Part shown: positions 453 through 18,982 of the stretch, piece by piece
Layout of the letters: every line of letters begins with the position of its first letter
Numbering within the stretch: the first letter of the stretch is position 1
NCBI GenBank assembly: GCA_041688015.1
Contig: JBDNIY010000003.1
Span: 31,545 to 95,544, forward strand
DNA length: 64,000 nt
Direction: 5' to 3'
Origin: Parvibaculaceae bacterium
Lineage (GTDB): Bacteria; Pseudomonadota; Alphaproteobacteria; Parvibaculales; Parvibaculaceae
Program-made: the position numbers and the translations under genes
Notes under the pieces: generated by a model
The model's input: only the letters and a program-made list of their open reading frames with translations
Database searches by the model: none
Told to the model about the DNA's origin: nothing

Positions 453-2111
453 GTGATTAGGCCTATGTCTTTCCTGAATATGCTGTCGTCGAATATGTCG
501 ATCTCGATCATCAATCGCTATGCGGCCTTCATCCTTTGTCTGATCCTGACTTGTATCGGGCTACTCACCGCACAAATATGGGGCTTTGGCCAGCCGCTCG
601 CGATCATCGCGGGGTTTTTCACCATTGTCGGCGTCATCGACCTGCTGCAATCCCAGCACGCGGTTTTGCGCAACTACCCCATCATCGGCCATATCCGCTA
701 TCTGATGGAAGGCATCCGGCCTGAAATTCGGCAATATCTTCTAGAGGCTGATAACGACGCCCTGCCTTTCTCGCGCAGCCAGCGCACGCTTATCTATTCG
801 CGCGCCAAGAACGAACAGGCCGACCAGCCTTTCGGTACACTGATGGATGTCTATAAGGACGGTTACGAATTCATCGGCCATTCCTCGCGCCCCATGCCCG
901 CAACCGATCCAACGCTTTACCGCGTCTCCATCGGCAATGACCAATGCGCCAAGCCCTATTCATGTTCTGTCTTTAACATCTCGGCCATGAGCTTCGGCTC
1001 GCTCAGCGCCAACGCCATTTCCGCGCTCAATCGCGGCGCACAGATAGGCAACTTTGCGCATGACACTGGCGAAGGCGGCATCAGCCCCTATCACCGCGCA
1101 CAGGGCGGCGATCTCATCTGGGAAATCGGCAGCGGCTATTTTGGCTGCCGCAATCATGACGGCAGTTTCAGCGCCGAACGCTTTGCCGCCAATGCCTTAT
1201 CCGATCAGGTCAAGATGATCGAGATCAAACTGAGCCAAGGCGCTAAGCCTGGCCATGGCGGCATTTTGCCGGGCGCAAAAGTAACACCGGAAATTGCCGC
1301 CACACGCGAAGTCGAAGAAGGCGTCGATTGCATTTCACCCTCGCGCCACAGCGCCTTTGCGACACCGCTTGAGATGATGGAATTCGTCGGCCAATTGCGC
1401 AGCCTTTCCGGCGGCAAGCCTGTCGGCTTCAAACTCTGCGTCGGTCACCCCTGGGAATTCATGGGCATCATCAAGGCCATCCTTGAAACCAATATCGTGC
1501 CCGACTTCATCGTCGTTGATGGCGGCGAAGGCGGCACAGGCGCGGCGCCTGTTGAGTTTTCCGACCATCTCGGGATGCCGCTACGCGAAGGGCTGTTGTT
1601 CGTTCACAATGCGCTGGTTGGCACAGGCCTACGCGACAAAATCAAGATCGGGGCAAGCGGTAAAATCGCCAGCGCCTTTGACATTGCGCGCGTCCTAGCG
1701 CTGGGGGCTGACTGGGGTAACTCGGCGCGCGGCTTCATGTTTGCCATTGGCTGCATCCAATCTCGCAGCTGCCACACCAACAAATGCCCTACGGGCGTGG
1801 CAACGCAAGACCATCTGCGCCAGCGCGCGTTGGTGGTGCCCGACAAGGCTGAACGGGTGGCAAATTTTCACCGCAATACATTAAAGGCGCTGGCACAAAT
1901 GCTGGCCGCCGCCGGTCTCGACAACCCCGACGAACTCGCGCCGCATCATGTCGTGCGGCGCATCAGCGAAACCGAAACGCGCCTCTTCTCCCAGCTCCAC
2001 TATTTCGTGAAGCCGGGAGATATTGTCAGAGAGGCAGGCGATCTCAGCGAGTTTTACAAAGCAAGCTGGGCCATGGCGCGCGCCGATACATTTGACGCGA
2101 TCCGGGGCTGA
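453..2111 (+). CDS. FMN-binding glutamate synthase family protein (GltB domain-2-like) with N-terminal membrane segment
   Basis: 552-aa ORF. Contains GEGGISPYH, IEIKLSQGAKPGHGGILPG, VVDGGEGGTGAAP and a CxxxxC-type cluster region typical of the family. The start is uncertain among several early Met codons. Confidence 0.85.
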   Translation: MIRPMSFLNMLSSNMSISIINRYAAFILCLILTCIGLLTAQIWGFGQPLAIIAGFFTIVGVIDLLQSQHAVLRNYPIIGHIRYLMEGIRPEIRQYLLEADNDALPFSRSQRTLIYSRAKNEQADQPFGTLMDVYKDGYEFIGHSSRPMPATDPTLYRVSIGNDQCAKPYSCSVFNISAMSFGSLSANAISALNRGAQIGNFAHDTGEGGISPYHRAQGGDLIWEIGSGYFGCRNHDGSFSAERFAANALSDQVKMIEIKLSQGAKPGHGGILPGAKVTPEIAATREVEEGVDCISPSRHSAFATPLEMMEFVGQLRSLSGGKPVGFKLCVGHPWEFMGIIKAILETNIVPDFIVVDGGEGGTGAAPVEFSDHLGMPLREGLLFVHNALVGTGLRDKIKIGASGKIASAFDIARVLALGADWGNSARGFMFAIGCIQSRSCHTNKCPTGVATQDHLRQRALVVPDKAERVANFHRNTLKALAQMLAAAGLDNPDELAPHHVVRRISETETRLFSQLHYFVKPGDIVREAGDLSEFYKASWAMARADTFDAIRG

Positions 2112-2148
2112 CGCGATCCGGGGCAAACGCGACCCGTGACTAGCCCGA

Positions 2149-3903
2149 TCAACCTTCGGCAAAGACCTTCTTGAGCTCGGTCTTGAGGATTTTGCCATTA
2201 GCGTTACGCGGCAAGGTTTCCTTCCAGAAGACAACCTTGACCGGCACCTTGAAGGCCGCAAGTTTAACCGCGACAAAGGCCTTCAATTCTTCTTCTGTCG
2301 CTGTCGAGCCAGGCGTCAGATAAACAACCGCACCGGCTTCTTCGCCCAACGTGCGATGAGGCACAGCGACGATTGCCGCATCCATTACGGCAGGATGCTC
2401 ATAGAGGACGTTTTCAACTTCGGCACAGTAGATATTCTCACCGCCACGAATGAGCATGTCCTTGGCACGGTCGAGGATGAAGCAGAAACCTTCTTCATCG
2501 ATCCGCGCAAGATCGCCCGTATGCACCCAGCCATCGACAAATGTTTCAGCAGTGGCTTCTGGCTTGTTCCAATATTCCTTCACGACATTGGGGCCACGCC
2601 CACACAACTCACCCACTTCATTGACCCCAAGCGTCTCGCCATCAGGGTCGATGACTTTCAAATCGCAAACGGGAATGGCCGGGCCGCAGCTCAACGGGCG
2701 ATGCTCATAATCCTCTCCTGCATGATTTGTGAAAGTCGCCGACGTTTCGGTCATGCCCCAGCCGTTGCCAGCCTGAGACTTGGGGAATGTTTCGAGGATC
2801 TTACGCACCAGTTCCGGCGCGGATGGCGCCCCGCCGTAGGAGACACCTTCGAGCGAGGAGAGATCATATTTGGCGCGATTGGGATGTTCGATCAACTGCC
2901 AAGCAATCGTCGGCACACCGCCCGCGCCGGTAATTTTTTCACGCTCAATAAGCTGCATCGCCTTTTCGGCGTCCCACTTGTGCATCATGACAATCTTGGC
3001 ACCAGCATAGAGCGACGGCGACATGATGGCGTGGCAGCCTGTGGCATGAAAGAACGGGACCGAAAGCAGTGTTGATTTCTGTGGATCCGCCGGATTGGGC
3101 TGAGGCGGCATCTCGCCACGCCGCAAGAAGGTGCGTGCGCCTGAAATGCCCGCCGCCATGATGTTCGACATCATGTTGCGATGAGTGCCGAGGGCGCCCT
3201 TGGGCTTGCCCGTCGTGCCAGAGGTATAAAAGATCGTCGCATCGTCGTCGGAGTCCAGCGACACATCCGGCAAAGGCTTGTCGGGAAGGGTGCCCCAATC
3301 ATTAACGGGACCGACAATGGTCTCCATGCCGATCACCTTGGCATCCGCGCTGGCGGCCCCTAAACGCGCCACATAGATGCGCTCCAAATCTTTGCAGTTG
3401 CCCAAATGATCTTTGACGCGTGCATAGAGTCCCGCATCGAGGATGGCGACCTTTGAGCCGGAATCTATCAACCCATATTCGAGTTCGTCGGCCGTCCACC
3501 ACGCATTGAGCGGCGTCACGATGGCACCGGTCAGCGAGGCCCCGTAAAAAGCCACCGGCCATTCGGGCAGGTTACGCATGATGATAGCCACCCGGTCGCC
3601 CTTCTTGACGCCCTTGGCGATCAGCTCATGGGCGAATGTGATGGCAGCGCGCGCAAAGCCCTCAAACGTGGCGCGATCATCATCCAGCACCAGAAACGTC
3701 CGCTCGCCGTGAGCGCGTCCCAGCAGAAAAGAATCGCGAATGGTCGGCGGCGCGTTCTTCCAAACGCGAATTTTCTGGCCGCGAATGACCTTTTCTTCCA
3801 TCTCGAAGGGAATGCCGGGGGCCGTCAAAAAAGCATGCGCCTCGGCAATGGTCATGGCCGGCCAGGCGACTTTGGCAGGATTGGATGTTTCAACGTCGGT
3901 CAT
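2149..3903 (-). CDS. AMP-dependent acyl-CoA synthetase/ligase (class I adenylate-forming enzyme)
   Basis: 584-aa ORF with the AMP-binding signature YTSGTTGKPKG, GWGMTE and TGDLARIDEEGF motifs. Confidence 0.9.
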   Translation of the reverse strand: MTDVETSNPAKVAWPAMTIAEAHAFLTAPGIPFEMEEKVIRGQKIRVWKNAPPTIRDSFLLGRAHGERTFLVLDDDRATFEGFARAAITFAHELIAKGVKKGDRVAIIMRNLPEWPVAFYGASLTGAIVTPLNAWWTADELEYGLIDSGSKVAILDAGLYARVKDHLGNCKDLERIYVARLGAASADAKVIGMETIVGPVNDWGTLPDKPLPDVSLDSDDDATIFYTSGTTGKPKGALGTHRNMMSNIMAAGISGARTFLRRGEMPPQPNPADPQKSTLLSVPFFHATGCHAIMSPSLYAGAKIVMMHKWDAEKAMQLIEREKITGAGGVPTIAWQLIEHPNRAKYDLSSLEGVSYGGAPSAPELVRKILETFPKSQAGNGWGMTETSATFTNHAGEDYEHRPLSCGPAIPVCDLKVIDPDGETLGVNEVGELCGRGPNVVKEYWNKPEATAETFVDGWVHTGDLARIDEEGFCFILDRAKDMLIRGGENIYCAEVENVLYEHPAVMDAAIVAVPHRTLGEEAGAVVYLTPGSTATEEELKAFVAVKLAAFKVPVKVVFWKETLPRNANGKILKTELKKVFAEG

Positions 3904-4218
3904 AGCTTTACGCGCGCTCCCTAGGGGTCATCATTTTGAGATTTTATTCTTGATTGGGCGGGAGAATGGGGGGGGAACGCAAGCTCACGCAAGAAAAAAC
4001 GTGCTCTCCGCAGCGTCAAATCATGGCTTTAGGGGTCGAATTTCATCTCGCAGTGTCCCGATGCCCGCCTGACGGCCTTTTCGGTGCAAAGCCGCCCCTG
4101 CGTAAAGAGATGCCAACTGGCATCGCGCGCGCAATCTACGCTATACCTTCGGCCAACCACGGCGCTGAAAACGCCCGACCAAAAGTACCCGACCGCAAAG
4201 TTGACGAGGACACGCGCC

Positions 4219-5439
4219 ATGAGCCAGGCTCCAGAAAGCATCAGCCCCGACAATCTTGAGGCCTTCCGCCGCGAAGTCACAGATTGGTTCAGCGCTAACA
4301 AGCCGACCGATCCAGGTTTCCTGTTGCCGCAATCCTTCATGGAAGTGGGCACCGACGACCAGTTCTATTTCCTGCGCGACTGGCAAAAGAAAGTCTATGA
4401 GGCGGGCTATCTGGGCATGGCATGGCCCAAGGAATATGGCGGCGGTGGACGCCCGCAGGCGCTACAAGACATCGTGACACGCGAAATGGTACGTCAAAAA
4501 ACGCCCTTTATGACCAATACCATCGGCCTCAACTGGGCGGGCCCGCTGATCCTCAACATGGGAACCGAGGAGCAAAAAAAGGCTTTCATTCCGGGTATTT
4601 TGAGCGCCGACGACATCTGGTGTCAGGGCTTTTCTGAGCCTGACCATGGCTCTGACCTTGGCAACGCGCAGCTGAAAGCCACACGCGAGGGCGACAAATT
4701 TGTCCTCAACGGCTCGAAAATTTGGACGAGCCTTGGCCGCCACGCCAAATATATGATCCTGCTGGCGCGCACCAACCCGAACACCAACAACAAATATGAG
4801 GGCCTGAGCTTCTTCCTCATTCCGATGGATGTGCCGGGCATCGAGGTCACGCCGATCAAGAAGCTGACCGGCGAGTTCGGCTTCAACCAAACCTTCTTTA
4901 CCGACGCACGCATTCCCGCCTCCTGCCTCATCGGCAAGGAAGACGGTGGCTGGGCGGTCGCTATGGCAACGCTCGCCTTTGAACGCGGCGCGGTGGGCGG
5001 GCAGGCCGGTGGCCACGCCATGAACAGCAAGCATGTGTCGGAAGTCGTGACGCTGGCCAAAACGGCCAAGCGCAATGGCAAGCCCGCCATCGAAGACCCG
5101 GTGATCCGCGACAAGCTGGTGCAATTCATCATGGAAGAACGCGCGCAGGCACTGAACGGCTCACGCGCCCGCATCAAGGCGTTGAACGCGGAACGCCCGC
5201 ATTCAATCGCCATGTCCGGCAAGCTCGTGGCCACCGAATATTCGCGCCGCATGAACCAGTTTGCGCTGTCACTACAGGGCGCCAACGCCGCCTATTATGT
5301 CGGCGACGCCCTCGCCTATGACGGCGGCCTCTGGCAGCGTTCCTATTTCAACGCTTTCTCGGGCACCATCGGCGGCGGCACCAGCGAAGTGCAACACAAC
5401 ATCATCGGCGAGCGCGTGCTCGGCCTGCCAAAGAGCTGA
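4219..5439 (+). CDS. acyl-CoA dehydrogenase family protein
   Basis: The ORF-track frame 4084-5439 is trimmed to Met46 (MSQAPES). ACAD-like motifs are present (CQGFSEPDHGSDL, GGTSEVQHNIIGERVLGLP). Confidence 0.88.
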   Translation: MSQAPESISPDNLEAFRREVTDWFSANKPTDPGFLLPQSFMEVGTDDQFYFLRDWQKKVYEAGYLGMAWPKEYGGGGRPQALQDIVTREMVRQKTPFMTNTIGLNWAGPLILNMGTEEQKKAFIPGILSADDIWCQGFSEPDHGSDLGNAQLKATREGDKFVLNGSKIWTSLGRHAKYMILLARTNPNTNNKYEGLSFFLIPMDVPGIEVTPIKKLTGEFGFNQTFFTDARIPASCLIGKEDGGWAVAMATLAFERGAVGGQAGGHAMNSKHVSEVVTLAKTAKRNGKPAIEDPVIRDKLVQFIMEERAQALNGSRARIKALNAERPHSIAMSGKLVATEYSRRMNQFALSLQGANAAYYVGDALAYDGGLWQRSYFNAFSGTIGGGTSEVQHNIIGERVLGLPKS

Positions 5440-5455
5440 GAGCGAGGACCCAACC

Positions 5456-6586
5456 ATGCTGGACACTAACAAAAAGCCGACCATCCTCTTCAGCGATGAG
5501 CAGGAACAACTGCTGGAAGTCGCATCGAATTTCTGCCGCAACAGATTTCCGATGAGCGCCACCCGCAAGCGCATCGAAGCGCCGGAAGATTTCGACAAGA
5601 CGCTCTGGGCCGAAATCGCCTCTCTAGGCTGGCTCGGCATTGCTGTGCCCGAAGAATTCGGCGGCAGCGGATTGACGCTCGCCGAAGTTGTCACCGTCGT
5701 CGAACCGATGGGACAATATCTGGCGGGCACACCGCTCGTCTCGACAACGCTGGTCGCTCAAGCGCTCATCGCCGCAGGCACTGAGGCCCAAAAGAACAAC
5801 TGGTTGCCAAAAATCTGCGAAGGCACCATCGGCGCGCTCGCGCTCACCGAGCCTAGCGGCGACTGGTCACTGACCGATCTTGAATGCAGCGCCACAAAAA
5901 ATGGCGATACGCTGATGTTCAAAGGCACCAAGACTTTTGTTACCGATGCCGCCTCCGCCGATCTTGTTATCGCATCGGTGATGCTCGACGGCGCGCCTGC
6001 GCTCGTCATCCTTGATCGCACTGCGCTCGACGCGGCCACCGTCTCGCGTGAAATCGTGATCGACGAAACACGCCGCTCTTATCGCCTGACGCTTGATGGC
6101 GTGAAAGTGCCTATGAGCGCCCTGCTTGATCCCGCCAAAACCAAAGCGGCACTCGGCCATCTCGACCAAGCAGCCTGCTTGCTCCTGTCTGCCGAAGCCT
6201 GTGGCGGCGCCATGGGCGTGATCGACGTCGTGGTCGATTATCTCAAAACGCGCAAGCAGTTCGAGCGTTATATCGGCTCTTACCAAGCGCTGAAGCACCC
6301 CACCGTCGATGCCCTGCTCGCCACCGAAGCGGCCCGCTCGCATCTTTATTATGCTGCCACCGTATTTGGTCAAGGCATCGAAGGCGAAGTCGCAGTGCGC
6401 ATGGCCAAGGCGCAATCGAGCGACGCCTTGGCGTTTGCATCCGACCGCGCCATCCAGTTCCACGGCGGATTCGGCTTCACCTATGACTGCGATGCGCAAC
6501 TCTATCGCCGTCGCGGAATTTGGTGCGAAACGCAACATGGTGACAGCGCCCATCACCGCACAAAACTGGCTGACATTCTTCTGTAG
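5456..6586 (+). CDS. acyl-CoA dehydrogenase family protein (second subunit/paralogue)
   Basis: The frame 5261-6586 is trimmed to Met66 (MLDTNKK), 17 nt after the upstream stop. ACAD C-terminal motifs are present (QFHGGFGFTYDCDAQLYRRR). Confidence 0.88.
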   Translation: MLDTNKKPTILFSDEQEQLLEVASNFCRNRFPMSATRKRIEAPEDFDKTLWAEIASLGWLGIAVPEEFGGSGLTLAEVVTVVEPMGQYLAGTPLVSTTLVAQALIAAGTEAQKNNWLPKICEGTIGALALTEPSGDWSLTDLECSATKNGDTLMFKGTKTFVTDAASADLVIASVMLDGAPALVILDRTALDAATVSREIVIDETRRSYRLTLDGVKVPMSALLDPAKTKAALGHLDQAACLLLSAEACGGAMGVIDVVVDYLKTRKQFERYIGSYQALKHPTVDALLATEAARSHLYYAATVFGQGIEGEVAVRMAKAQSSDALAFASDRAIQFHGGFGFTYDCDAQLYRRRGIWCETQHGDSAHHRTKLADILL

Positions 6587-6877
6587 GCAACCAACTTCTG
6601 TAGGCAACCAAGCCGCTCCAGTGAGTATGTGCGATGACGTCCAGATACCGGCCAGGCGGCTGTCCCTCACTAAGCGAGAGCGGTGGCCGAGAAAGACAAC
6701 CAGCACGGCAAGCTCCCGAACAACGTTAAGCGCCACAACCTGAAGGGCCTTTTTGGGCGTTGATACTCAAAATATAGGGCGCCATCACAAATGATGGGGC
6801 AGATGTCGAAATTCCCCAATCCCGACATGATTGTTCTTTATTCCTCGACACACCATATGAGGACAAAGGAGATCAAC

Positions 6878-7261
6878 ATGTTTGAACAACTAGTGGCACC
6901 TGAAAATGTCATCGCGATGCGCCTCAGCGGAACCCTGACCAGAGAGGATGTCCACACCTACAAGGCCATCATTGAAGACAAGATTGCCAGCCACAAACAC
7001 TTTGGCGTTTGTGTGGACATGTCCAAGCTACACGACCTGGGCGCTGACGCGCTGACCGATGACGCCATGGTCGAGTTTGAACTCCTTACCCATGTCTCAA
7101 AATTCCGCCGCTGCGCCCTTGTCTCAGACAAGTCTTGGCCCATCACAATGGCGGTCGCCATCGGCCACTTGATTCCACTCCTAGAAGTCAAATCCTTCGA
7201 GCCAGAGCAGGGCGATGCGGCCATTGTCTGGGCCTCTGAAGGCCCAGCGCAGCCGCATTAA
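6878..7261 (+). CDS. STAS/SpoIIAA-like (DUF3478-type) small protein
   Basis: ATG 6878 is preceded by AAAGGAG. The ~127-aa product has the layout of SpoIIAA-like STAS/SEC14-type proteins. The family call is from memory only. Confidence 0.55.
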   Translation: MFEQLVAPENVIAMRLSGTLTREDVHTYKAIIEDKIASHKHFGVCVDMSKLHDLGADALTDDAMVEFELLTHVSKFRRCALVSDKSWPITMAVAIGHLIPLLEVKSFEPEQGDAAIVWASEGPAQPH

Positions 7262-7611
7262 AAGCGCGCGCTCACGCAGCCGCTAACTGACATTTCTACC
7301 AAACGACAGAATGAGCGTTTTTTAAGCACCGCCTAGCGACAACCGCTCAAAGTCGGCTGCCATGCCAGCTGCTTGCCCGTTTGTACGCTAGGCGTGGGCC
7401 GGGGGTGCGGGAAGGTCACGCGCCGCACCGTCAGCCCGCCAACCGAAAGGCGGCCTGAAACAATATCTAGCCCACTGTGTCTATCCTGCCCCTGATTGTT
7501 CACATTTCGGTCGGGCCACGTAGGCCGGCCGAGTACGTAAGGATAATTGGGTGAGGGCGGAAATCACTGGAAAATATTTCTAAGGCCCTTGGAATTCAGA
7601 GAAACATACGC

Positions 7612-8108
7612 ATGAAACTACTTCATATTTTGGTGCCTGTATTGCTGGCATAGACCGCCGCTTTTGCAGCGGACACAGCCACCGTTAATTGGCCTAGATC
7701 TTATATCGGTGCCAACGTTGGCTATGTCTGGAGCGATGTCGATTACAGCTCCGTCGTCGGAAGCGGCGGCATGTCGCCTGACACCGTCATTGGGGGCCTC
7801 CAGGCCGGGTACAACTGGCAGTTCAGCAACAATATCGTGCTGGGCGCAGAAATCGGCGCTTCTCTTCTCGATGGCAATGACAGTAAGACGGATGCTCTTG
7901 GGATCGTGTCCACAAGACGCTGACCGGCTGGGTTGCTGGTACCGGCGCTGAAAAGATGGTGACGCGGAACGTCTCACTGCGCCTTGACTATTCTTACTAC
8001 GACTATGGCTCCGAAACGTTCCACTACAATTTTGGTTTGTTTACTGGCACCGCAGAGGTGGACACGAAGGCTGACGTCGTCACACTTGGCGTGAATTACA
8101 GATTCTAA
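7612..8108 (+). pseudogene. Omp25/Omp31-type outer-membrane beta-barrel porin, disrupted
   Basis: Signal peptide MKLLHILVPVLLA is followed by an in-frame TAG at 7651-7653. The beta-barrel motifs GLQAGYNWQF and VLGAEI follow. Frame 1 ends at TGA 7921, and the C-terminal part (GWVAGTGAEK...LDYSYYDYG...TLGVNYRF*) continues in another frame starting near 7920. The total length is shorter than typical family members. Confidence 0.75.
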
Positions 8109-8149: not shown

Positions 8150-8483
8150 TCTTTCAGCGAAGGCTGTTCCTCTGCAAACTTCAAAATCGCCAATTGGCAC
8201 CAACGTCCGTCGAAAACCAGCACCTTAAAGGGTGTTGTATTTGTTTTAAAAGGATGGAAAAGACGTTTTTCAAGGGCAATTGGCGGGCCACGACCGATGA
8301 AGATGATCACTACGAATACGCTGTAGCGCTATGACGGAACGTAGAAGCACTGCCTATCGTGGCGACGTCGGTGCACACTCACCCACCGTCATCGCTCGCC
8401 CAAACGCTGATTGACCTTGAGCAACCGTTCTCAATTGTTCACGCAGAACTTTAGATTTTATTCACATAACAACGGCTCTGTTT

Positions 8484-8498
8484 TTCACACTTTGTGAA
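8484..8498 (+). promoter_or_regulatory. 6-3-6 inverted repeat TTCACA-ctt-TGTGAA upstream of the cargo cassette (possible operator)
   Basis: Perfect palindrome 53 nt upstream of ATG 8551. Further TTCAC copies occur at 8438-8442 and 8461-8465. Confidence 0.3.
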
Positions 8499-8550
8499 CG
8501 ACGCCGGGGATTGGGACAGCTAAACCTCCATCATAACGAAGGAGGCAAGC

Positions 8551-8841
8551 ATGATCCCTTTAACCCAGCACGCATCACTCAGGTGCGCTCAGCGCGGCAT
8601 TCGGGCTGAGTTTCTTGACGACCTGATCCGGCTTTCGGACGTCGAAACGCCGATTGGATCAAACTGCCGACTATTCCGCGTGAGCCCTCGCGCCGGTCGC
8701 CAACACGCAGAGCGTGATCGGCTGTCGCGCTATGCCGTCATCTGGAGCGATGACAGCCAATCTGTGGTGACCGTTCTTCCGGTTCAACGTGGACGATCCG
8801 GGCGCCGCTATCGGCACAGTGTTCGCGGAGGTTCGCAATGA
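8551..8841 (+). CDS. small DUF4258-like protein (cassette gene A, 96 aa)
   Basis: AAGGAGG (8539-8545) lies 5 nt before the ATG. The N-terminal HASLRCAQRGI resembles the H-A..R...RGI signature I associate with DUF4258 toxin-like proteins. The tail is Arg-rich. The stop overlaps the next start (ATGA). Confidence 0.7.
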   Translation: MIPLTQHASLRCAQRGIRAEFLDDLIRLSDVETPIGSNCRLFRVSPRAGRQHAERDRLSRYAVIWSDDSQSVVTVLPVQRGRSGRRYRHSVRGGSQ

Positions 8842-10289
8842 CCGCGACCGTGCTGCCATTCGCGAGGCCCAGTGCCGAGGGCGCGCGTGAGAAAGCCAGC
8901 GAAGAGCGGACGGCCAGTGAGATCGATCGGCGCGCGTTCATAAGAGAAATTCGGGGGGTGCTGGACTCTCCCAAGGGCAAAGCAAAACTTCAGCGGAGGC
9001 TGCGCCGAGACGAAGATGCTGTCCTGTTGGCGAAGCGGCTCGGAGCCGATCTTGAAGTGCTGAAGAAGCGAGAACGCGGTGCTCTCTCCAAAACGCTGGC
9101 GCGTGCAGACATAAAGCCTACCGAACGCGCTCGATTTGCGATGTTTGCCGACGATACCGCTTCGGGAAAGCGGATTCGCGCGCTCCACCGTTATCGGAGG
9201 CTTTCGGATGCGATTGCCGAAGCCTTGGGGCAGGACGAGGACCTGTTCCTTTACGAGAAGCTGGACGGCATTAATCTTGTCGAGACGGAGGAAACTGGCA
9301 CCGACGAAGCAGCCAAGTTTGGCCTCCTTCTCAACCAGATGGCAAAGGCCGTGGCCGAGCGGACGGGGCTGAGCGATTTCTTCGATTTGGCCGCGAGAAC
9401 GCCTGGCATGATGGATGAGTGGGGACATTTTCAGCCCTCCACGATGACCGTGCTTCGCGACCGGGCGCATGAGGATGGGTTCGATCATTGGACCGAGCAA
9501 CAGCCGATACCATCGGTTCCGGTTTGCCGTATCCTGGAGCAGACAATTCATGGACGAGCTAGAGTTGCGCCGTGGGCGAAGTTGTCCCCCCGGAATCTTC
9601 CGAAGCTCGTGCAAGCGGTGGACGGACCAAGTTCCGTTGAGGCCGTGGATATCACTGTTGAGGTTTGGCGGGAGATCGGGCTGGCGATCGGGGAACGGTA
9701 TCAGCAGGGCGCGATTGGCCCGATGTTTTCGGGGCGGGCGCACATCAAGGTCATCATCGGCGGTGTTGTCGCAACGCCTTTTTACCCGTGGACGCTGGAG
9801 CACTTCTTTTCCGATCAGCCCGCACTTTTGGTCGATGGTGACCGCTGGACGGCTTGTAGGGCCGAGCTTGATCTGGATGACGCGTTTTCGGATGCCTGGG
9901 TAGAACCAAGCCCGCCTCCCGGAGAACCAAACTACTCTGTCGAGCACTATTACTTCAGCAAGCATCCGGTGAACGCTTGGACGCTCCGCCACTTGCTAGA
10001 TCGGTCCGAAGCCGAACTACCAAACGCCGAAAGCCTGCTGCCCGAAGTCGGGCCAGACGAGCGCCTCGATGCTTATCGGTTTCGTGGTGAAATCGGCCAG
10101 CGTTTTGAAACCGCTCTATTTTCTGGTGCCCTAGAGCGCGCGCTGAGCGCCGACATTGAGCGGCTAAAAGACGGGCTCAATCGATACTTGACCGAACGCC
10201 AGGGAAAATTCGCGGCCCAAGACGACGTGATGATGGCCCGCTGGAAAGACGCTGAGCGTGCGGATGCTGACGGACCGGAGGAAGATTGA
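8838..10289 (+). CDS. 483-aa protein of unknown function (cassette gene B)
   Basis: GCGGAGG lies 6 nt upstream of the start, which overlaps the stop of gene A as ATGA. Codon usage and composition look like coding sequence, whereas the antisense ORF is R/P/S/H-rich. No Walker A or other motif was recognised. Confidence 0.8.
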   Translation: MTATVLPFARPSAEGAREKASEERTASEIDRRAFIREIRGVLDSPKGKAKLQRRLRRDEDAVLLAKRLGADLEVLKKRERGALSKTLARADIKPTERARFAMFADDTASGKRIRALHRYRRLSDAIAEALGQDEDLFLYEKLDGINLVETEETGTDEAAKFGLLLNQMAKAVAERTGLSDFFDLAARTPGMMDEWGHFQPSTMTVLRDRAHEDGFDHWTEQQPIPSVPVCRILEQTIHGRARVAPWAKLSPRNLPKLVQAVDGPSSVEAVDITVEVWREIGLAIGERYQQGAIGPMFSGRAHIKVIIGGVVATPFYPWTLEHFFSDQPALLVDGDRWTACRAELDLDDAFSDAWVEPSPPPGEPNYSVEHYYFSKHPVNAWTLRHLLDRSEAELPNAESLLPEVGPDERLDAYRFRGEIGQRFETALFSGALERALSADIERLKDGLNRYLTERQGKFAAQDDVMMARWKDAERADADGPEED

Positions 10290-10291
10290 CC

Positions 10292-11296
10292 ATGAAACCT
10301 AATGTGACCGAAAGTTCTATCGATCGTGTTCTCGCGCGCCTGCTTACTTCCAGCACCTCCGTGGCCCAGGCGTTCCTTGAGGCCGCTGCACCCACAAAAG
10401 GAGACCTGACATTTGACCGCGTAACGGTCAGCGCCCAAGTGCCTCATCTCGGCACTCACGGCACCGCCGATTTGGCCCTGCGTCTCTGGTCTGAGAACCG
10501 ATTGCAGGCGCTGATCCTGATTGAAAACAAGATCGATGCCGGGTTCACGCCCGACCAACCGGCACGATATGCGCTCTGCCGAGACACGCATTTGACGAGT
10601 CAATCGGCGCTCGTCGTGGCGACGTTGCTGGTCTCGCCCTCGATATACATCGCAGGGTCACGGCTGAAAGATGCCTTCGACGGGACGCTGAGTTACGAGC
10701 GCCTCTTACCCTTCCTCGAAGGGCCAGATCGTGCTTCGATGGAATTAGCGATCGAGCGCGCAGCCAGCCCCTACGAACCCCTTCCTGTCGCAGCCGTCAT
10801 GGGCTTCTTCGACGGCTACGCTGCGATTGCCGCTGAGACGTTCTCAGACCTTAAAATCAAGACCAATCCCAACAGCGCGAACGCTCGACCCGAAGCGTCA
10901 CGAACCATCTATTTTGACGCACGCGCCAGCGGCTTTCGCCAGTACGTCTTTCTGAAAAAGGGGGATAAGCCCGCGAGCATACGGGTGTCACATCAATGCT
11001 GGGATTCGACCGCGCCTAGCGCCAGCGTCAAATTGATGCTCGACGGCTGGGCCGGCCACGTCGGCACGGCAAGTGGGTTTCTTCAGCCAGCACTGAAGCG
11101 CAGCGGACTATACCTGCGACCGGCAGGCCGCAGCTTGGCGTTGGTCGCTCACACGAAGCGGCTCGATAACATGCGTCCTGCCGACGAACAGCGCGCTGCG
11201 ATCGAGGAAGCGCTGCACCAGCTTCGCCATATCAGAGATGTTTGGAACGGCCTGGAAGGCTTGCTCGCGCAGACCGCCGCAGCCGTGAAATCATGA
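10292..11296 (+). CDS. PD-(D/E)XK nuclease-like protein with uncharacterised C-terminal domain (cassette gene C, 334 aa)
   Basis: ATG 10292 lies 2 nt after the stop of gene B, with GGAGGAAG upstream. The motif is ADL...LILIENKIDAGFTPDQPARY (D, then E-x-K, then Q..RY), as in PDDEXK_4-type nucleases. Confidence 0.8.
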   Translation: MKPNVTESSIDRVLARLLTSSTSVAQAFLEAAAPTKGDLTFDRVTVSAQVPHLGTHGTADLALRLWSENRLQALILIENKIDAGFTPDQPARYALCRDTHLTSQSALVVATLLVSPSIYIAGSRLKDAFDGTLSYERLLPFLEGPDRASMELAIERAASPYEPLPVAAVMGFFDGYAAIAAETFSDLKIKTNPNSANARPEASRTIYFDARASGFRQYVFLKKGDKPASIRVSHQCWDSTAPSASVKLMLDGWAGHVGTASGFLQPALKRSGLYLRPAGRSLALVAHTKRLDNMRPADEQRAAIEEALHQLRHIRDVWNGLEGLLAQTAAAVKS

Positions 11297-11976
11297 ACCC
11301 CGGGAAGGGTAACGCGCAGCTCGCGGGCTGCGCAGGCATGATCGTCATGGTTGTCGTCATCTACATCGGTGTCGAGGTTTCTGACAGCTTCTCGGGGTTC
11401 CTATGGACAATTGGCCTCGCAACGCTTGGCACGATGACGACGGGAATTTGGGTACTCACGAAACTGTCTGCAGGCGCGGAGGAACGGCGACAGACGGCCA
11501 TCAAGAAACTTACCGATGCGAGTATCTCGACAGCGAACGCGGTGACCTGCATCGATAGCGGAATCACGCTTGCCTGCGATCTCGTCGGCGGCCGTCTGGC
11601 GGTCGTTCAGTCCGGCACGTCTACCATGTTCATCTTGGCCGACGAAATCATCAAAATCACGATCAATGTGGATGGTCGAACGATCATTAAGATCGACAAT
11701 CTGAGCGCCGCCGCTGGTGGAATCATCGGCGGCGCGCTGGCTGGGAAAACGGGGCTATTGCTCGGCATACTGAGCGGGAAGAGGAAACGGTCTCAGAAGG
11801 CGTTTTCGGTCTCCTTGCAAATCATCACCAGGAACGACACCCATCCCATGATCGACGTCGTATTGCTCGAAGACCCTACGGGCGTTGATCCTTCGGATGC
11901 GACGTATCGGACTGCGATTGTCAGCGCGGAACGCTTTCGTGCCGACGCTGATCGCCTTCTTCGGTCGGCTCGATAA
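11293..11976 (+). CDS. membrane protein, two N-terminal TM helices plus glycine-zipper segment (cassette gene D, 227 aa)
   Basis: ATGA overlap with the stop of gene C and no SD of its own, which implies translational coupling. TM segments are LAGCAGMIVMVVVIYIGVEV and FLWTIGLATLGTMTTGIWVLT. The later segment AAAGGIIGGALAGKTGLLLGILSG is GxxxG-rich. Confidence 0.75.
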   Translation: MNPGKGNAQLAGCAGMIVMVVVIYIGVEVSDSFSGFLWTIGLATLGTMTTGIWVLTKLSAGAEERRQTAIKKLTDASISTANAVTCIDSGITLACDLVGGRLAVVQSGTSTMFILADEIIKITINVDGRTIIKIDNLSAAAGGIIGGALAGKTGLLLGILSGKRKRSQKAFSVSLQIITRNDTHPMIDVVLLEDPTGVDPSDATYRTAIVSAERFRADADRLLRSAR

Positions 11977-12125
11977 CTCGGCAATTGATGGCCCAGTCAG
12001 CCGCCTGTGGTCTTGAGGAAGGTGGAGGAAGATGACGGCAAGATAAAGCGAGATTCCTCGCTGCCGGAACTTCGTTCCTAAGTATCTGTCTGCACATTGT
12101 TTTTTGGAGCCCCGTCAGCCCGATT

Positions 12126-12190
12126 GCAAGGTGCGCCGGTGGCACCCTTGCCATTTCATCCAGTGTTTTCAATGGCGAACTGGGTGCCAC
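12126..12190 (+). promoter_or_regulatory. candidate oriT / relaxase-upstream inverted repeats
   Basis: GCAAGGTGC (12126-12134) pairs with GCACCCTTGC (12142-12151) with one bulge. GTGGCACCC (12139-12147) pairs with GGGTGCCAC (12182-12190), a perfect 9 bp. Both lie 120-185 nt upstream of the relaxase ATG. Confidence 0.3.
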
Positions 12191-12310
12191 TCGCGAGGTG
12201 CAGTGATTGTCATTCCGCCGTTCGCCGCCGGCTGCAAGTATTTACGCGCCACGCCACCACACTACGTTTTGCTCGCTTGCATTGCCGATACCGACGCTCA
12301 TCGTCGGGTA

Positions 12311-14413
12311 ATGTCGAACGACGAAGACAGCTTCCGCATTCGCCCCGGCAAGGTCCGCGACCGTGGCGCAGGCGCTGCCCGGACGGCGCGCCCGCGCCCC
12401 GTGCGAGCGCGGCCAAAGACCTTCATCGGCGAGGTGCATCAGGCTATCCGCCGAGCTGGCGGCAACCCCAATCGTCCGGCCGGGACCGGGAAGGGAAGCG
12501 GGCGATGCAATGCGCGGGGCCGGGGCGCTCAGACCGCGGCCGAGTTGAAGGGCCGGAACGGGTGGAGCCGTGAGGCGGGCGGGGTCCGCACCCGGTCGCG
12601 GCGGGTGGCGGTGAAGGCCCGCATCGTGAAGCTCAATCCGCAGCGTGGGGCGGCGCGCGGGCGGCAGTTCGTCAGCGCCAAGGCCGTGGACGCGCATCTT
12701 CGCTATCTGGAGCGCGATGGCGTGACCCGCGACGGCGAGAAGGGCCAAGTCTATTCCGCTGGCCAGGACATCGCTGATGGTCCGGCCTTCCTCGACCTGT
12801 GCCGCGAGGATCGGCATCAGTTCCGTTTCATCGTGTCGGCAGAGGAAGGCGTCGAGCTGTCCGACCTGCGGCAGACGACCCGCGACCTGATGGCGCAGAT
12901 GGAATCCGACCTGGGAACAAAGCTCGACTGGATCGCGGTCGATCACCATAACACCGGCCACCCGCACACCCACATCCTCCTTCGTGGCGTCACCGATGAC
13001 GGCAAGCGTCTCGACATTGCGGGCGACTATATCGCCCACGGCATCCGCGAGCGGGCGAGCGAGATTGTTACGCTGGAGCTGGGCCGCCAGACCGAGCAGG
13101 AAGTCAGCCGCCAGCTTGAGCGCGAGGTGGACGCCGAGCGCTTCACCCGGCTCGACCGGATGCTGATCGCCGAGCAGCAGGCCAGCAACGAGTTCGCCGA
13201 CCTTCGCCCCGACAAGGACATGGCCGAGACCATGCGGCAGAACCGGGCGCTGCTGATTAACCGTGCCCGCAAGCTGGAGCGCATGGGGCTGGCCACCGAG
13301 CGCACGCCGGGCATCTGGACGATATCGGCCCGGGCCGAACCAATGCTCCGCGAGCTGGGCACACGCGGCGGCGACATCAAGACCATGCATCAGGCGCTGG
13401 AGCGCGAAGGCATCGCGGAGCAGCGGGGATATGCGGGCTATACGGTGCATCGTGCCACCCCGACCGAACGCATCGTCGGCCGCGTCGTCGCCAAGGGGCT
13501 GGGCAGCGACGAGTTGGGCCAGCAGATCGGCCTGACCATCGACGGCGTGGAGGGGCGCGTCCACCACCTGGAGGTTCCGGCAAGCAAGGCGGAAGACATC
13601 CGGCGCGGCAGCATCATCGCGGTGGAGCCGCCGCCGAGCGTCCCACGCGCCGCCGATCGCAATATTCTCGCAGCCACCGATGCAGGCGGCGTCTACAGCC
13701 CGGCCGCACACCGCGAGCAGGCGCTGGCACGGCTCGGGGCCGATGACGCCGACGCCTATGTCCGCAGCCATGTGCGCCGCCTGGAGGCGCTGCGCCGTGC
13801 CGGAATCGTCGAGCGCGTCCATGCCGAGCACTGGACCATTCCCGCCGACCTGTCCGAGCGCGGCCTCGCCTATGACCGCCGGCGGTTCGGGAACGGCCCG
13901 CGAATCGAGGAGTTGTCGCACCTGCCGCTCGACCGGCAGGTGCGCCACGAGGGCGCGACATGGCTCGACCGCACCATGCTGGAAGGCGGGCGTGATTCGA
14001 TGCCGCACACCGGGTTCGGCGGCGACGTCCGCGCCACCTGGGAGAGGCGCAAGCAGGCGCTCGCCGACATGGGCTATGTCCGTGACCTTGGCGGCGGCAG
14101 GTTCAGGGCGCCTTCCGACCTGATCGCGCAACTGGAGAGCGCCGAAATCAATCGGGTCGGCAAGGCGTTTGCCGCAGAGCGCGGCCTCGACTGGCAACCG
14201 ACCGGGGCCAATGACCGTGTATCGGGCAGGCTTGTCGGCCAGGCCCAGCTCAGCAGCGGACGGTTCGCCATGATCGACAATGGCCTGGGGTTCCAACTCG
14301 TGCCGTGGAACGACAGCTTGAGCAAACGCCTCGGCCAGCAAGTTGACGGAATCCCCATGCCTGGTGGCGGCATCGACTGGACGTTCGGACGGCAGCGGGG
14401 ACTTGGGCTGTAA
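12311..14413 (+). CDS. relaxase/mobilisation nuclease (VirD2/MobA-like, DUF3363-type)
   Basis: The frame 12104-14413 is trimmed to MSNDEDSFRIRPGK. The histidine triad is VDHHNTGHPHTHILLRGV and the candidate catalytic Tyr context is AHLRYLERDGV. This architecture is common on alphaproteobacterial ICE/IMEs. Confidence 0.85.
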   Translation: MSNDEDSFRIRPGKVRDRGAGAARTARPRPVRARPKTFIGEVHQAIRRAGGNPNRPAGTGKGSGRCNARGRGAQTAAELKGRNGWSREAGGVRTRSRRVAVKARIVKLNPQRGAARGRQFVSAKAVDAHLRYLERDGVTRDGEKGQVYSAGQDIADGPAFLDLCREDRHQFRFIVSAEEGVELSDLRQTTRDLMAQMESDLGTKLDWIAVDHHNTGHPHTHILLRGVTDDGKRLDIAGDYIAHGIRERASEIVTLELGRQTEQEVSRQLEREVDAERFTRLDRMLIAEQQASNEFADLRPDKDMAETMRQNRALLINRARKLERMGLATERTPGIWTISARAEPMLRELGTRGGDIKTMHQALEREGIAEQRGYAGYTVHRATPTERIVGRVVAKGLGSDELGQQIGLTIDGVEGRVHHLEVPASKAEDIRRGSIIAVEPPPSVPRAADRNILAATDAGGVYSPAAHREQALARLGADDADAYVRSHVRRLEALRRAGIVERVHAEHWTIPADLSERGLAYDRRRFGNGPRIEELSHLPLDRQVRHEGATWLDRTMLEGGRDSMPHTGFGGDVRATWERRKQALADMGYVRDLGGGRFRAPSDLIAQLESAEINRVGKAFAAERGLDWQPTGANDRVSGRLVGQAQLSSGRFAMIDNGLGFQLVPWNDSLSKRLGQQVDGIPMPGGGIDWTFGRQRGLGL

Positions 14414-14535
14414 GCGCTCGGATAGTGGGTCGGCACTCGGCAGTCGGTCGATGGATTGGGCGCGCCGCTACGAAGTCAACGGGGCTTGCCTGGTGACCCA
14501 TTGAGTGGTACATATACATTTCTTGGAGCCGGGCA

Positions 14536-14832
14536 ATGATCGTGAGCTTTCGGGATGGCTGGTTGCGGGACTTCTTCGTCGAGGATGTCCGGTCCCGCAA
14601 AATCCCGCCCGACCTTGAAAGCCGCGTCTTTGGCAAGCTCCAGATGATCGACGATGCGACGACGGATCAGGACTTGCGCATCCCCCCGAGCAACCATTTC
14701 GAGAAGCTGCGGGGCCAGCTTGAGGCGTTCCATTCGATCCGCGTCAACAAACAATGGCGGCTGATCTTTCGATGGAACGGCGGCAAGGGCGAGGCGAGCG
14801 ACGTGTATCTGGACGACCACAGCTATGATTGA
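14536..14832 (+). CDS. higB: type II toxin HigB (RelE/ParE superfamily, 'plasmid maintenance system killer')
   Basis: 98 aa, with FEKLRGQLEAFHSIRVNKQWRLIFRW typical of HigB-like toxins. It lies directly upstream of a HigA-type antitoxin. Confidence 0.85.
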   Translation: MIVSFRDGWLRDFFVEDVRSRKIPPDLESRVFGKLQMIDDATTDQDLRIPPSNHFEKLRGQLEAFHSIRVNKQWRLIFRWNGGKGEASDVYLDDHSYD

Positions 14833-14841
14833 GGTGACGCC

Positions 14842-15150
14842 ATGTTGATGACCAAGCGCAAGCCGGTGAGCGTCGGCGAGATTCTCACCAAGGAGTTCAT
14901 GGAGCCGATGGGGCTGACCCAGGCGGCACTGGCCGAGGCGATGGGCGTGCAGCGCAAGCACGTCAACGAACTGTGCAACGACCGCCGCAACATCACCGCC
15001 GCGACCGCGCTGATCCTGTCGCGCGTGTTCGGCAACAGCCCAGACTTCTGGCTGAACGTGCAGCGGCGCAATGACCTTTGGGAAGCGATGCACAGCCCGA
15101 AGGAGCGGGAGCGAATCGACCGCGCAAAACCGCTCAGGAAAGCGGCATGA
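14842..15150 (+). CDS. higA: type II antitoxin HigA (XRE-family HTH)
   Basis: 102 aa, with GEILTKEFMEPMGLTQAALAEAMGVQRKHVNELCNDRRNITAATALILSRVFGNSPDFWLNVQ, the canonical HigA pattern. Confidence 0.85.
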   Translation: MLMTKRKPVSVGEILTKEFMEPMGLTQAALAEAMGVQRKHVNELCNDRRNITAATALILSRVFGNSPDFWLNVQRRNDLWEAMHSPKERERIDRAKPLRKAA

Positions 15151-15280
15151 CGGCGCGGCAACCTTTGCCAGCCCTGCCGTCCGCTGCCGCGCGCCAGTAT
15201 CTGCGCGCCACAGTGCGATGCGTAGGACAGAGTAGAGAAATGCTATTCTTTCAACGCCCTGGTTCGGCGACTCTGGCGCA

Positions 15281-15505
15281 ATGGCCCGAGTCTTCCGCCC
15301 TTGTCCGCCCACGGCATCCGAGCAGCTTCACGCGCTGCTTGGCGAGCCGTGGCCGTTTCCGGGCCGACCGCCCAAACACGATCTTTCGACCTGGACCGTC
15401 ACCGACGACTGGCCCGAGCGGGTGCCTGTCACGCAGGCCGAGGTGGACCTGTTCGAGGCATGGTTCGGCGACCTTTTCGAAGAGATGTTCGGGCCGTGCC
15501 AATGA
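15281..15505 (+). CDS. 74-aa acidic hypothetical protein immediately upstream of the recombinase (possible directionality factor)
   Basis: The ORF ends 18 nt before the recombinase start on the same strand. No motif was recognised and its coding status is unverified. Confidence 0.45.
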   Translation: MARVFRPCPPTASEQLHALLGEPWPFPGRPPKHDLSTWTVTDDWPERVPVTQAEVDLFEAWFGDLFEEMFGPCQ

Positions 15506-15523
15506 TGTGAGGAGCTTGGCCAA

Positions 15524-17266
<1,743 letters not shown>

Positions 17267-17393
17267 ACCGGGGGCTTGGGCGCGCACAAGGCTTCAATCG
17301 CCCCGATTTCCGCCTTTTGCGCCTCGTTGCCCTTTTATTTGGCCAAGCCCGCCCCACAACCCTGCTACAGTAGCGCGAATGAGGAAACGCTAG

Positions 17394-18158
17394 ATGAGCA
17401 AGGCAGAGCAGGACACCACGTCGCCCCCCGTCTTTACCCGGCTCAAGGGCCGTGTTTTGGCGGCTTGGGCAGTTCATGCCTTTACGGCCTCAGGCGTCGT
17501 CACCGGCTTGCTGGCGATCTCGGCGCTCATCGCAGGCGATTTTCGCCTCGCCCTGCTCTGGCTCGGGGCCGCCCTGCTCATTGACGGTTTCGACGGGCCA
17601 ATGGCGCGCAAGGTCCGCGTCACCGAATATGCCCCCAATATGGACGGGGCAATCCTAGATCTGGTGATCGACTACCTCAATTATGCGGTCATTCCGGCGC
17701 TGCTGGTCTATCGCTTTGGCCTAGTGCCCACGGGCTTTGCCATTCCGGCGGCGGCTTGGATCATGATGACCTCGCTCTATTGCTTCGGAAATCGCGATAT
17801 GAAGACCGAAGACAATTATTTTCAGGGCTTTCCCGCCATCTGGAACCTCGTTGTCCTCTATTTCTACGTCACCGCTAGCCCACCTTGGGCGAACCTTCTG
17901 GTCATCATCGCCTTGGGCATCCTGACCTTCGTGCCGCTCAAATTCGTCCACCCCTTCCGGGTCGTGCGCCTGCGCGCGCTGACCATCGCCATGACCGGGG
18001 CCTGGGGCGCGCTGACCTTTGTGCTGGTGATCGGCAGCAAAGCTGGTGAAGCGCCTGTGGACTCCATGACCACCGCATATTGGGCCTTTTTGGTGGTTTC
18101 TCTCTACTTCTTGGGACTTTGTCTCTGGCGCTCTTACAAGGGACCAAAAACAACCTGA
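17394..18158 (+). CDS. pcs: phosphatidylcholine synthase (CDP-alcohol phosphatidyltransferase family)
   Basis: 254-aa polytopic membrane protein with DGFDGPMARK...DGAILDLVIDYLNY, the Pcs variant of the CDP-alcohol motif. Confidence 0.8.
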   Translation: MSKAEQDTTSPPVFTRLKGRVLAAWAVHAFTASGVVTGLLAISALIAGDFRLALLWLGAALLIDGFDGPMARKVRVTEYAPNMDGAILDLVIDYLNYAVIPALLVYRFGLVPTGFAIPAAAWIMMTSLYCFGNRDMKTEDNYFQGFPAIWNLVVLYFYVTASPPWANLLVIIALGILTFVPLKFVHPFRVVRLRALTIAMTGAWGALTFVLVIGSKAGEAPVDSMTTAYWAFLVVSLYFLGLCLWRSYKGPKTT

Positions 18159-18218
18159 GCCGCGTCAAAAAGCGGGGGGTTTAACGGCGACAAGGCAAGG
18201 GTTTTACCCCGCCGCGCC

Positions 18219-18246
18219 TTGACAGGCCAACCTCCCCCTGTATATT
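18219..18246 (+). promoter_or_regulatory. sigma70-type promoter of rplU-rpmA
   Basis: TTGACA (18219-18224), a 16-nt spacer, then TATATT (18241-18246), about 70 nt upstream of the rplU ATG. Confidence 0.55.
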
Positions 18247-18317
18247 GCGCGCCAATCCGGCCCGTGCTGCGGTTTCGCTGCGCGCAGGGCTTTTATCGTT
18301 ACATGGTGGTATCTCAA

Positions 18318-18629
18318 ATGTTCGCAGTCATCCGGACAGGCGGCAAGCAATACAAAGTCGTGCAAGACGACGTTCTCGAAGTGGAACGCGTTGAAGCGAA
18401 CGCTGGCGACAAAATCCAGCTCGACGTGCTCATGCTTGGCAATGGCGCAGACGTAACAGTCGGCGCGCCCCTCGTTTCCGGCGCCAGCGTCACCGCTGAA
18501 GTTGTCGAAATGACGCGTGGACCCAAAATCATAATCTTCAAAAAGAAGCGTCGTCAGAATTATCGCCGCAAAAATGGTCATCGCCAGGATTTGATGCTGG
18601 TGAAGATTATCAACATCGCCGCCGCTTGA
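18318..18629 (+). CDS. rplU: 50S ribosomal protein L21
   Basis: [15 protein letters not shown]-terminus. The frame 18219-18629 is trimmed to Met34. Confidence 0.93.
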
Positions 18630-18652
18630 TCGGTACTGAGGAGTAGAGACCT

Positions 18653-18931: not shown

Positions 18932-18982
18932 GACACGCGAGGCACCGCCACCTCGCAAGGTGGCAGCCATCCAGTTACGAGA

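Follow-up and report, generated by a model that had tools for sequence, protein, structure and literature searches.

The locus described here lies in a 64,000-nt stretch of DNA from a Parvibaculaceae bacterium (GenBank assembly GCA_041688015.1, contig JBDNIY010000003.1, positions 31,545 to 95,544 of the forward strand), which is referred to as the window and to which all window positions below refer. Four open reading frames (ORFs), designated A to D, follow one another on the forward strand and constitute an operon of 3.5 kb. Gene A (8551–8841 in the ORF list) encodes a small DUF4258-like protein of 96 amino acids with a predicted BECR/RelE fold and an isoelectric point (pI) of 11.35, and gene B (8838–10289) encodes an orphan protein of 483 amino acids with a pI of 5.30. 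Gene C (10292–11296) encodes a protein of 334 amino acids that is composed of a predicted PD-(D/E)XK nuclease domain at the N-terminal position and a conserved C-terminal domain. Gene D (11293–11976) encodes a glycine-zipper membrane protein of 227 amino acids, an accessory of the subclade to which the window belongs.

The four genes are tightly coupled. A and B share an ATGA overlap, with the stop codon of A at 8839–8841 and the start of B at 8838; the TGA stop codon of B (10287–10289) is followed after 2 nt by the ATG of C at 10292; and C and D overlap again as ATGA at 11293–11296. A Shine-Dalgarno sequence, AGGAGG, was read from the sequence upstream of A (8540–8545, forward strand) and is conserved in an alignment of the upstream regions. 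GGAGG and GGAGGA precede B and C, respectively, and no Shine-Dalgarno sequence was found for D in the window sequence. A preliminary description of this DNA, made from the letters alone, had given the same four same-strand ORFs at these positions, the same overlaps and 2-nt spacing, and AGGAGG-type sites for A, B, and C but none for D; the ORF list and the sequence agree with it on each of these points. It had also numbered C from a TTG codon at 10286. Because the C homologues all begin with MKP, the start codon was placed at the ATG at 10292, and the residues D62, E80, and K82 of the earlier numbering become D60, E78, and K80. Since the gene order and the overlaps are kept in homologues at 31 distinct loci, A to D are real genes and not chance ORFs.

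To delimit the conserved unit, every fetched locus was mapped with the profiles of the four proteins; 31 distinct loci contained A and B. A was located directly upstream of B in 31/31 loci, even where B was only ~20–25% identical to that of the window, and the two genes usually overlapped or were separated by a gap of no more than ~15 nt. A nuclease gene followed B in all 31 loci as well (two of them are truncated at a contig end, and L102 was inspected manually), and B often overlapped the nuclease gene by 4 nt, which was the case in several loci for every kind of nuclease. None of the A-B pairs among them lacked a nuclease. The third position was occupied by the C family in 23 loci, by a second nuclease family in three, and by a GIY-YIG family in five. 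The conserved unit is therefore A-B with a nuclease from one of three unrelated families, and the fourth gene is variable. The expectation that the genes would co-occur outside the source genome was borne out by the A-B-nuclease synteny at these loci. The idea that A-B-C-D as a whole forms the conserved functional unit did not hold, as the nuclease is swapped among three families and D is found in a small subclade only. The operon is thus rarer, and organized otherwise, than had been proposed; so far, it has been found mostly in Alphaproteobacteria.

In the C family (43 sequences), residues E7, D11, D60, E78, N79, K80, Q89, R92, and Y93 are invariant, and the C-terminal ~180 residues are conserved. 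An AlphaFold2 (AF2) model of C was confident, with a predicted local distance difference test (pLDDT) score of 92.5. The top fold matches of this model in the PDB (R2 RLE, BstEII, PaqCI, and SgrAI) were restriction-endonuclease-like, all of them weak (best E value, 8e-3), and two matches at E ≤ 1.5e-5 were obtained against BFVD (best E value, 7.6e-6). Of 50 distant full-length relatives of C from many phyla, 30 matched PDDEXK_4 and 34 matched the PADLOC defense candidate PDC-S26 (best E value, 5.7e-9). C of the window matched PDC-S26 with an E value of 0.0022 and 15.5 bits over residues 15–94 only, short of a full-length match, and PDDEXK_4 with an E value of 0.053, under the gathering score. 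The invariant D60/E78/K80, the model, the fold matches, and the PDDEXK_4 relatives place C in the PD-(D/E)XK superfamily. C is accordingly described as a predicted PD-(D/E)XK nuclease whose active site is intact, as had been proposed from its motif.

The second nuclease family found in the slot of C carries an aDIV...IEaKk motif and is, judged by this motif alone, putatively PD-(D/E)XK-like; comparison with C by hhalign gave a probability of 4%. The profile of the GIY-YIG family matched PDB 9u75_A, the CMoRE restriction enzyme, with an E value of 3.5e-8 over residues 23–99, that is, over the nuclease domain only. CMoRE, a type IV restriction enzyme with a GIY-YIG domain, consists of a single protein (PDB 9u75; PMC12923530). 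C-family nucleases also occur across phyla, and many fetched loci carry them without an A-B partner, including sphingomonad loci and an Azospirillum replicon. Remnants of A, B, or D were searched for in the C-only loci, and none were found. On the replicon of Azospirillum ramasamyi (NZ_CP029830; L109, 5168–10987), a C homologue with 41% identity ends a different operon, which comprises a WYL regulator, two proteins with long glycine-zipper-like membrane segments (515 and 339 amino acids), and a 309-amino-acid protein; this arrangement echoes the pairing of nuclease and glycine zipper in the window. A pair of genes for Metallophos and SMC-like ATPase proteins adjoins C-family genes at two loci (L095, 4373–9452; L009, 1736–8966), in differing arrangements.

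These distributions bear on a reading in which the operon consists of two independent units. A-B would then be a plain toxin-antitoxin module for addiction or stress, and C, with or without D, would be an autonomous restriction-like nuclease, for example a type IV-like modification-dependent one. The breadth of the C family and its many loci without A-B speak for this reading, as do the PDC-S26 matches in 34 of the 50 distant relatives, the likeness of the GIY-YIG alternative to a restriction enzyme that consists of one protein, and the Azospirillum C that pairs with entirely different genes. It has to be set against the gene order, in which nucleases of three unrelated families stand directly after A-B in 31/31 loci, often joined by a 4-nt overlap, and in which no A-B pair lacks one.

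D is far less constant than the nuclease. Hydropathy shows a strong hydrophobic segment at approximately residues 9–30 and a weaker one at approximately 36–56, which are followed by a PH-like middle, a glycine zipper (residues 138–162, with five GxxxG motifs at 142–162), and a C-terminal domain. Of the earlier proposal of two transmembrane helices and a glycine zipper, the glycine-zipper membrane protein with its GxxxG motifs was retained, and the second helix is less certain, corresponding to the weaker segment. D and its homologues carry the precomputed database label PF27000 PH_gly_zipper, and D of the window had no match among the PADLOC models at E ≤ 1. One D homologue is labeled "general stress protein CsbA," whereas the named relatives of A, B, and C are all "hypothetical protein." Homologues of D formed only seven clusters in 5.8 billion proteins and represent a small subclade. 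Outside the subclade of the window, D is absent or swapped for an unrelated soluble protein: the Rhodobacterales loci have an unrelated soluble protein of ~130 amino acids in its place, a Bradyrhizobium locus has yet another fourth-gene protein, and several loci have no fourth gene. The system is therefore modular: the A-B pair is constant, the nuclease is exchangeable, and the accessory is optional, and the C family also occurs without A-B.

A soluble family of ~130–140 amino acids, designated D2, was observed 3′ of C in many Rhodobacterales loci, some of them without A-B (L028, 10957–11376; L009, 9204–9584 and 1263–1739; also L026, L027, L040, and L095). A related copy of D2 lies within a neighboring helicase-Metallophos-SMC gene set.

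The constant pair was examined for its own affinities. In an alignment of 17 members of the A family, H7, R11, G16, G36, and R86 are invariant, and A carries a DUF4258-like signature, H-A..R..QRG-I ... VVTV. PF14076 (DUF4258) was matched by 4 of the 17 members (best E value, 1.2e-4). For A of the window, neither Pfam nor the PADLOC models gave a match at E ≤ 1, and a profile search with the A family found no relative in the PDB. The earlier assignment of A as DUF4258-like is thus sustained at the level of the family, with A of the window itself below the Pfam threshold. DUF4258 is one of 13 toxin families of the RelE/ParE superfamily (BECR fold), and a 2025 survey called it undescribed in the literature (PMC11980606).

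B had been described as lacking any recognizable domain and as charged at its N-terminus, and both statements agree with the present results. No Pfam, PADLOC, or NCBIfam match was obtained for B of the window, Pfam gave no meaningful match for any of 65 diverse members of the B family, and no relative was found in the PDB. Charged residues make up 40% of the first 130 residues and 28% of the remainder. The family is small: a word-based search gave 22 clusters, and an exhaustive search with a profile, which covered 1.84 billion proteins, gave 129 cluster representatives. No relatives of B were found in the genome-collection scan, among 72,556 plasmids, or in a viral scan that used the close-clade alignment. 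An AF2 model built with 22 homologues was poor (pLDDT 60.6); in it, the charged N-terminus is helical, the middle is rich in beta structure, and the C-terminus forms a long helix. The model had no fold match by Foldseek against the PDB (best E value, 0.17). Few residues are conserved in the wider family, which argues against B being an enzyme.

Three leads on B were considered and dropped. A weak Foldseek match to the controller protein 2ef8_A (probability 0.63) had prompted the idea of a helix-turn-helix (HTH) in the N-terminus, but this was not supported, as the PDB profile search gave helical-repeat noise and hhalign against HigA of the window gave a probability of 0.6%. The motif LRDRxHE..DHW does not vary within the close clade, but its invariance is lost in the wider family, and it is probably not catalytic. 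The match between the middle of B and P0223, a Big_2-type surface repeat protein of 1739 amino acids, comprised seven stretches and was regarded as spurious.

Repeat detection revealed an operator-like element 5′ of A on the forward strand (8437–8502). It is composed of half-sites spaced by ~23 nt, GTTCAC at 8437–8442 and TTCACA at 8461–8466 and 8484–8489, the last of which forms the palindrome TTCACA-N3-TGTGAA (8484–8498). The 64-kb window contains the 19-nt pattern TTCNCNNTTTGNGAANGAC a single time, compared with 0.03 occurrences expected. It was found once per locus, ~50 nt upstream of A, in 11/11 fetched loci of the window clade, and the flanking sequences are unrelated. In the Rhodobacterales clade, the same position is occupied by a repeated CTGAAAA and the palindrome TCAGAWTCTGA. 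The putative operator follows the clade of the cassette and not the host, which suggests that a protein encoded by the cassette regulates its own operon, in the manner of toxin-antitoxin systems.

The strongly basic A (pI 11.35) beside the acidic B (pI 5.30), the DUF4258-like nature of A, and the operator-like palindrome conserved within the clade are the reasons for reading A-B as toxin-antitoxin-like. A basic A, an acidic B, and an upstream operator-like sequence are classic of toxin-antitoxin modules and speak for two independent units as well. Against such a plain module, B is ~5 times the size of a typical antitoxin, and the DNA-binding domain expected of a type II antitoxin was not found in it: the partner is a protein of 483 amino acids, without a Pfam domain in 65 members and without a supported HTH. 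Taking the gene order and the nature of B together with the distribution of the nucleases, we consider two independent units unlikely. The reading preferred here is that a toxin-antitoxin-like A-B module and the nuclease act as one system.

In the window, the cassette is located 128 nt upstream of the ORF of a MobA/VirD2-type relaxase with a DUF3363 domain (12104–14413, forward strand; Pfam DUF3363, E value 1e-112; Relaxase, E value 2.7e-6). The relaxase probably starts 3′ of 12104, and the predicted fold of the intergenic region between D and the relaxase gene is unremarkable. HigB (14536–14832; HigB-like_toxin, E value 2.4e-30) and HigA (14842–15150; HTH_3, E value 1.8e-11) follow on the forward strand. 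The cassette had been placed beside this HigBA module; in fact, the relaxase gene stands between the two, and the module (14536–15150) is 2.5 kb away from the cassette. A large serine recombinase with the Pfam domains Resolvase, Recombinase, and Zn_ribbon_recom is encoded at 15524–17266 (forward strand), and its 3′ end overlaps a tRNA-Ser(cga) gene on the minus strand (17126–17215). The reading frame of the recombinase may extend across the attachment site into host DNA. Direct repeats at the attachment sites of an integrative element were looked for, none were found, and the left border was not fixed. The earlier description of the cassette as the sole cargo of an integrative and mobilizable element of ~9 kb is therefore tentative.

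On the left side, two short ORFs (7771–7923 and 7956–8108) resemble pieces of a disrupted porin-type gene, which would have encoded an outer-membrane beta-barrel. The second of these matches OMP_b-brl (E value, 3.4e-4) and is followed by a terminator-like hairpin at 8218–8237. The broken porin-type ORFs and the hairpin may mark the left edge of inserted DNA.

The base composition of the cassette differs from that of the relaxase and recombinase part. The G + C content is 0.58–0.61 for the cassette (8300–12000) and 0.65–0.71 for the relaxase and recombinase region (12200–17000), and the G + C content at third codon positions (GC3) is 0.64–0.68 and ~0.80–0.82, respectively. The lower GC3 of the cassette relative to the neighboring relaxase and recombinase points to a foreign origin, and the two parts may have different origins.

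The proximity to the relaxase raises the question of whether the cassette serves the mobile element and not immunity, for example by stabilizing a DUF3363-relaxase element, by entry exclusion, or by processing or partition of its DNA. The spacing of 128 nt in the window favors such a role, as does a second locus (L110) in which the cassette again lies on a DUF3363-relaxase element; modules of the toxin-antitoxin type, moreover, commonly stabilize mobile elements. Of the 31 loci, however, only two, the window and L110, have a DUF3363 relaxase in the vicinity, and the arrangement differs between them: in L110 the relaxase is 7 kb from the cassette, on the opposite strand, among genes of the integrative and conjugative element (ICE) type. 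Consistent co-occurrence with a relaxase and transfer genes, as a backbone component would have, was not observed. The other loci are chromosomal defense islands or a prophage-like contig without transfer genes, and the difference in base composition also sets the cassette apart from the relaxase and recombinase part. Since a relaxase is present in 2/31 loci and B is absent from the 72,556 plasmids, the cassette is cargo and not transfer backbone. This was the point on which the preliminary description had asked for its claim of cargo to be judged, and the claim stands. Service to the element is regarded as very unlikely.

Residence in defense islands and on mobile elements was recurrent and included Mza, AbiE, and NACHT neighbors and a prophage-like contig. 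Neighboring proteins were scanned with PADLOC (143 proteins from 19 loci; the scan output does not assign matches to individual proteins), and other neighbor labels were taken from Pfam. The models MzaB, MzaC, and MzaE each matched two proteins, with E values of up to 1e-131. Mza has been called a validated system (PMC9523054). In L001 (339–9518), the cassette comes directly after a Dcm-Vsr-HATPase-Z1-DUF4420-AIPR series, an Mza-type set by its Pfam labels, and in L029, a Rhodovulum locus (617–7878), the upstream proteins are similar in size to the Mza set of L001. Judging from gene sizes and Pfam labels, the Mza matches probably belong to these two loci. A functional link between Mza and the cassette is possible. 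The C proteins of the two cassettes are only ~38% identical.

The other PADLOC matches among the neighbors were DruE-like helicases (Druantia-like), MkoA/MkoC-like proteins (Mokosh-like), and type II methyltransferases. REase-ARP, HNH, and a giant helicase (DEAD/YjiV) were found near the cassettes of L004 and L098, and further neighbors included pairs of Metallophos and SMC proteins. In L110, an AbiEii/DUF6088 pair (10612–11755) and a NACHT protein of 2066 amino acids (16771–20684) flank the cassette, which has all four genes. In L108, a prophage-like IMG/VR contig of an uncultivated virus genome (UViG), an A-B-GIY-YIG cassette (5129–7997) is located between terminase-like genes and a methyltransferase with a ParB domain.

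The cassette could not be matched to any named system, as had been stated before from the combination of its parts, and none of the models in PADLOC, Pfam, and NCBIfam assigns it to one. Within PADLOC-DB v2.0.0 (5,027 models, covering Shedu, Kiwa, Gabija, Septu, Lamassu, and others), no named system fits A, B, or D at E ≤ 1, and C has only the weak PDC-S26 match; NCBIfam gave nothing (databases to 2023). An immunity system of bacteria that has not yet been described is the most likely reading of the cassette.

On balance, we lean modestly toward a system in which a toxin-antitoxin-like A-B module regulates its own expression and controls an exchangeable DNA nuclease; D would be an optional effector at the membrane. 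A and B would be made in fixed proportion through coupled translation, and the basic, RelE-fold A and the acidic B would form a toxin-antitoxin-like complex in which B restrains A. This complex, most likely through B, would bind the palindromic operator 5′ of A and repress the operon. Upon sensing phage or other invading DNA, A-B would license the nuclease, and the DNA of the invader, or of the cell, would be cut. Released A may shut down translation, possibly as a ribonuclease (RNase). D, where present, could be a membrane anchor or a second, membrane-depolarizing effector. The gene structure, the constant order, the exchange of nucleases, the intact catalytic motif, the conserved operator-like sequence, and the context were observed directly, whereas the formation of a complex, its trigger and targets, and protection of the cell are inferred. 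The wider proposal that A-B is an unrecognized pair of sensor and regulator that licenses or guards unrelated DNA nucleases, and so defines a new multi-gene immunity family, is put forward tentatively and with somewhat less than even confidence.

A variant of this mechanism would follow PrrC-EcoprrI, which is a precedent for a guard. The nuclease would then act as first-line restriction with A-B monitoring it, and an anti-restriction factor that disables the nuclease would cause A to be released and the infection to be aborted. A constant A-B beside varied DNA nucleases fits a module that docks on restriction-type enzymes, the nucleases of the third gene resemble stand-alone restriction or defense nucleases, and A would belong to a superfamily of RNase toxins. 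The guard would, however, require one B family to recognize three structurally unrelated nucleases, and no features like those of an anticodon nuclease are present. It is a refinement of the A-B-controlled nuclease favored here and not a separate class, and we regard it as quite improbable.

Several points weigh against the A-B-controlled immunity system. A function in defense or abortive infection is deduced from context and architecture, and the defense-gene neighbors are raw counts without a matched background control. C-family proteins are often found without A-B and their distant relatives look like single-gene candidates (PDC-S26), so C may act autonomously. RNase activity of A would follow from a distant family resemblance alone, and A of the window is under every Pfam threshold. 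B has no recognizable domain, fold, or conserved catalytic residues, which makes its role as sensor or antitoxin a conjecture, and the putative HTH in its N-terminus found no support from the PDB profile search or from hhalign with HigA. Scans for promoters and terminators around the cassette gave no consensus.

If true, the A-B-controlled nuclease would give a first functional context both to the DUF4258 branch of RelE-fold toxins and to a family of ~500-amino-acid proteins without a known fold. If validated, it would be a new immune family in which a RelE-fold protein is locked to a large orphan and accepts at least three nucleases, and the function of DUF4258 and the control of unrelated effectors by one module would become testable. 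The clade-specific operator and an operon of only 3.5 kb make cloning and dissection easy. The general importance is probably modest because the cassette is rare and so far mostly from Alphaproteobacteria.

The nearest known systems are DUF4258 toxin-antitoxin modules, PDDEXK_4/PDC-S26 nucleases, and defense systems with swappable effectors, and on the features tested the cassette falls outside all of them. Like the DUF4258 (PF14076) type II toxin-antitoxin modules of the RelE/ParE superfamily, it has a small basic product with a DUF4258-like signature coupled to an acidic partner and a palindromic sequence upstream, and it is carried on mobile elements. Unlike in those modules, the partner is an orphan of ~500 amino acids and not an antitoxin of ~100 amino acids with a DNA-binding fold. 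The DUF4258 modules have been listed with the antitoxin first (PMC11980606), whereas in the cassette the toxin-like gene comes first, a nuclease gene is always attached, and A of the window is below the Pfam thresholds. C has the PD-(D/E)XK core in common with the PDC-S26/PDDEXK_4 nucleases but is the third gene of an operon, not a stand-alone protein, and C of the window matches them weakly. CMoRE shares the GIY-YIG domain with the alternative nuclease of other lineages, but it works alone, and this alternative is not present in the window. A constant sensor with swappable effectors is known from Lamassu, CBASS, Septu, PARIS, and Gabija, with which the cassette was compared by architecture only. 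It resembles them in its constant core, its alternative nuclease effectors, its optional transmembrane effector, and its residence in defense islands and on mobile elements. It differs from these systems, and from PrrC-EcoprrI, in lacking an ATPase, SMC, cyclase, TOPRIM, or other hallmark domain. The cassette is a candidate for a kind of defense or abortive-infection operon with toxin-antitoxin-like control.

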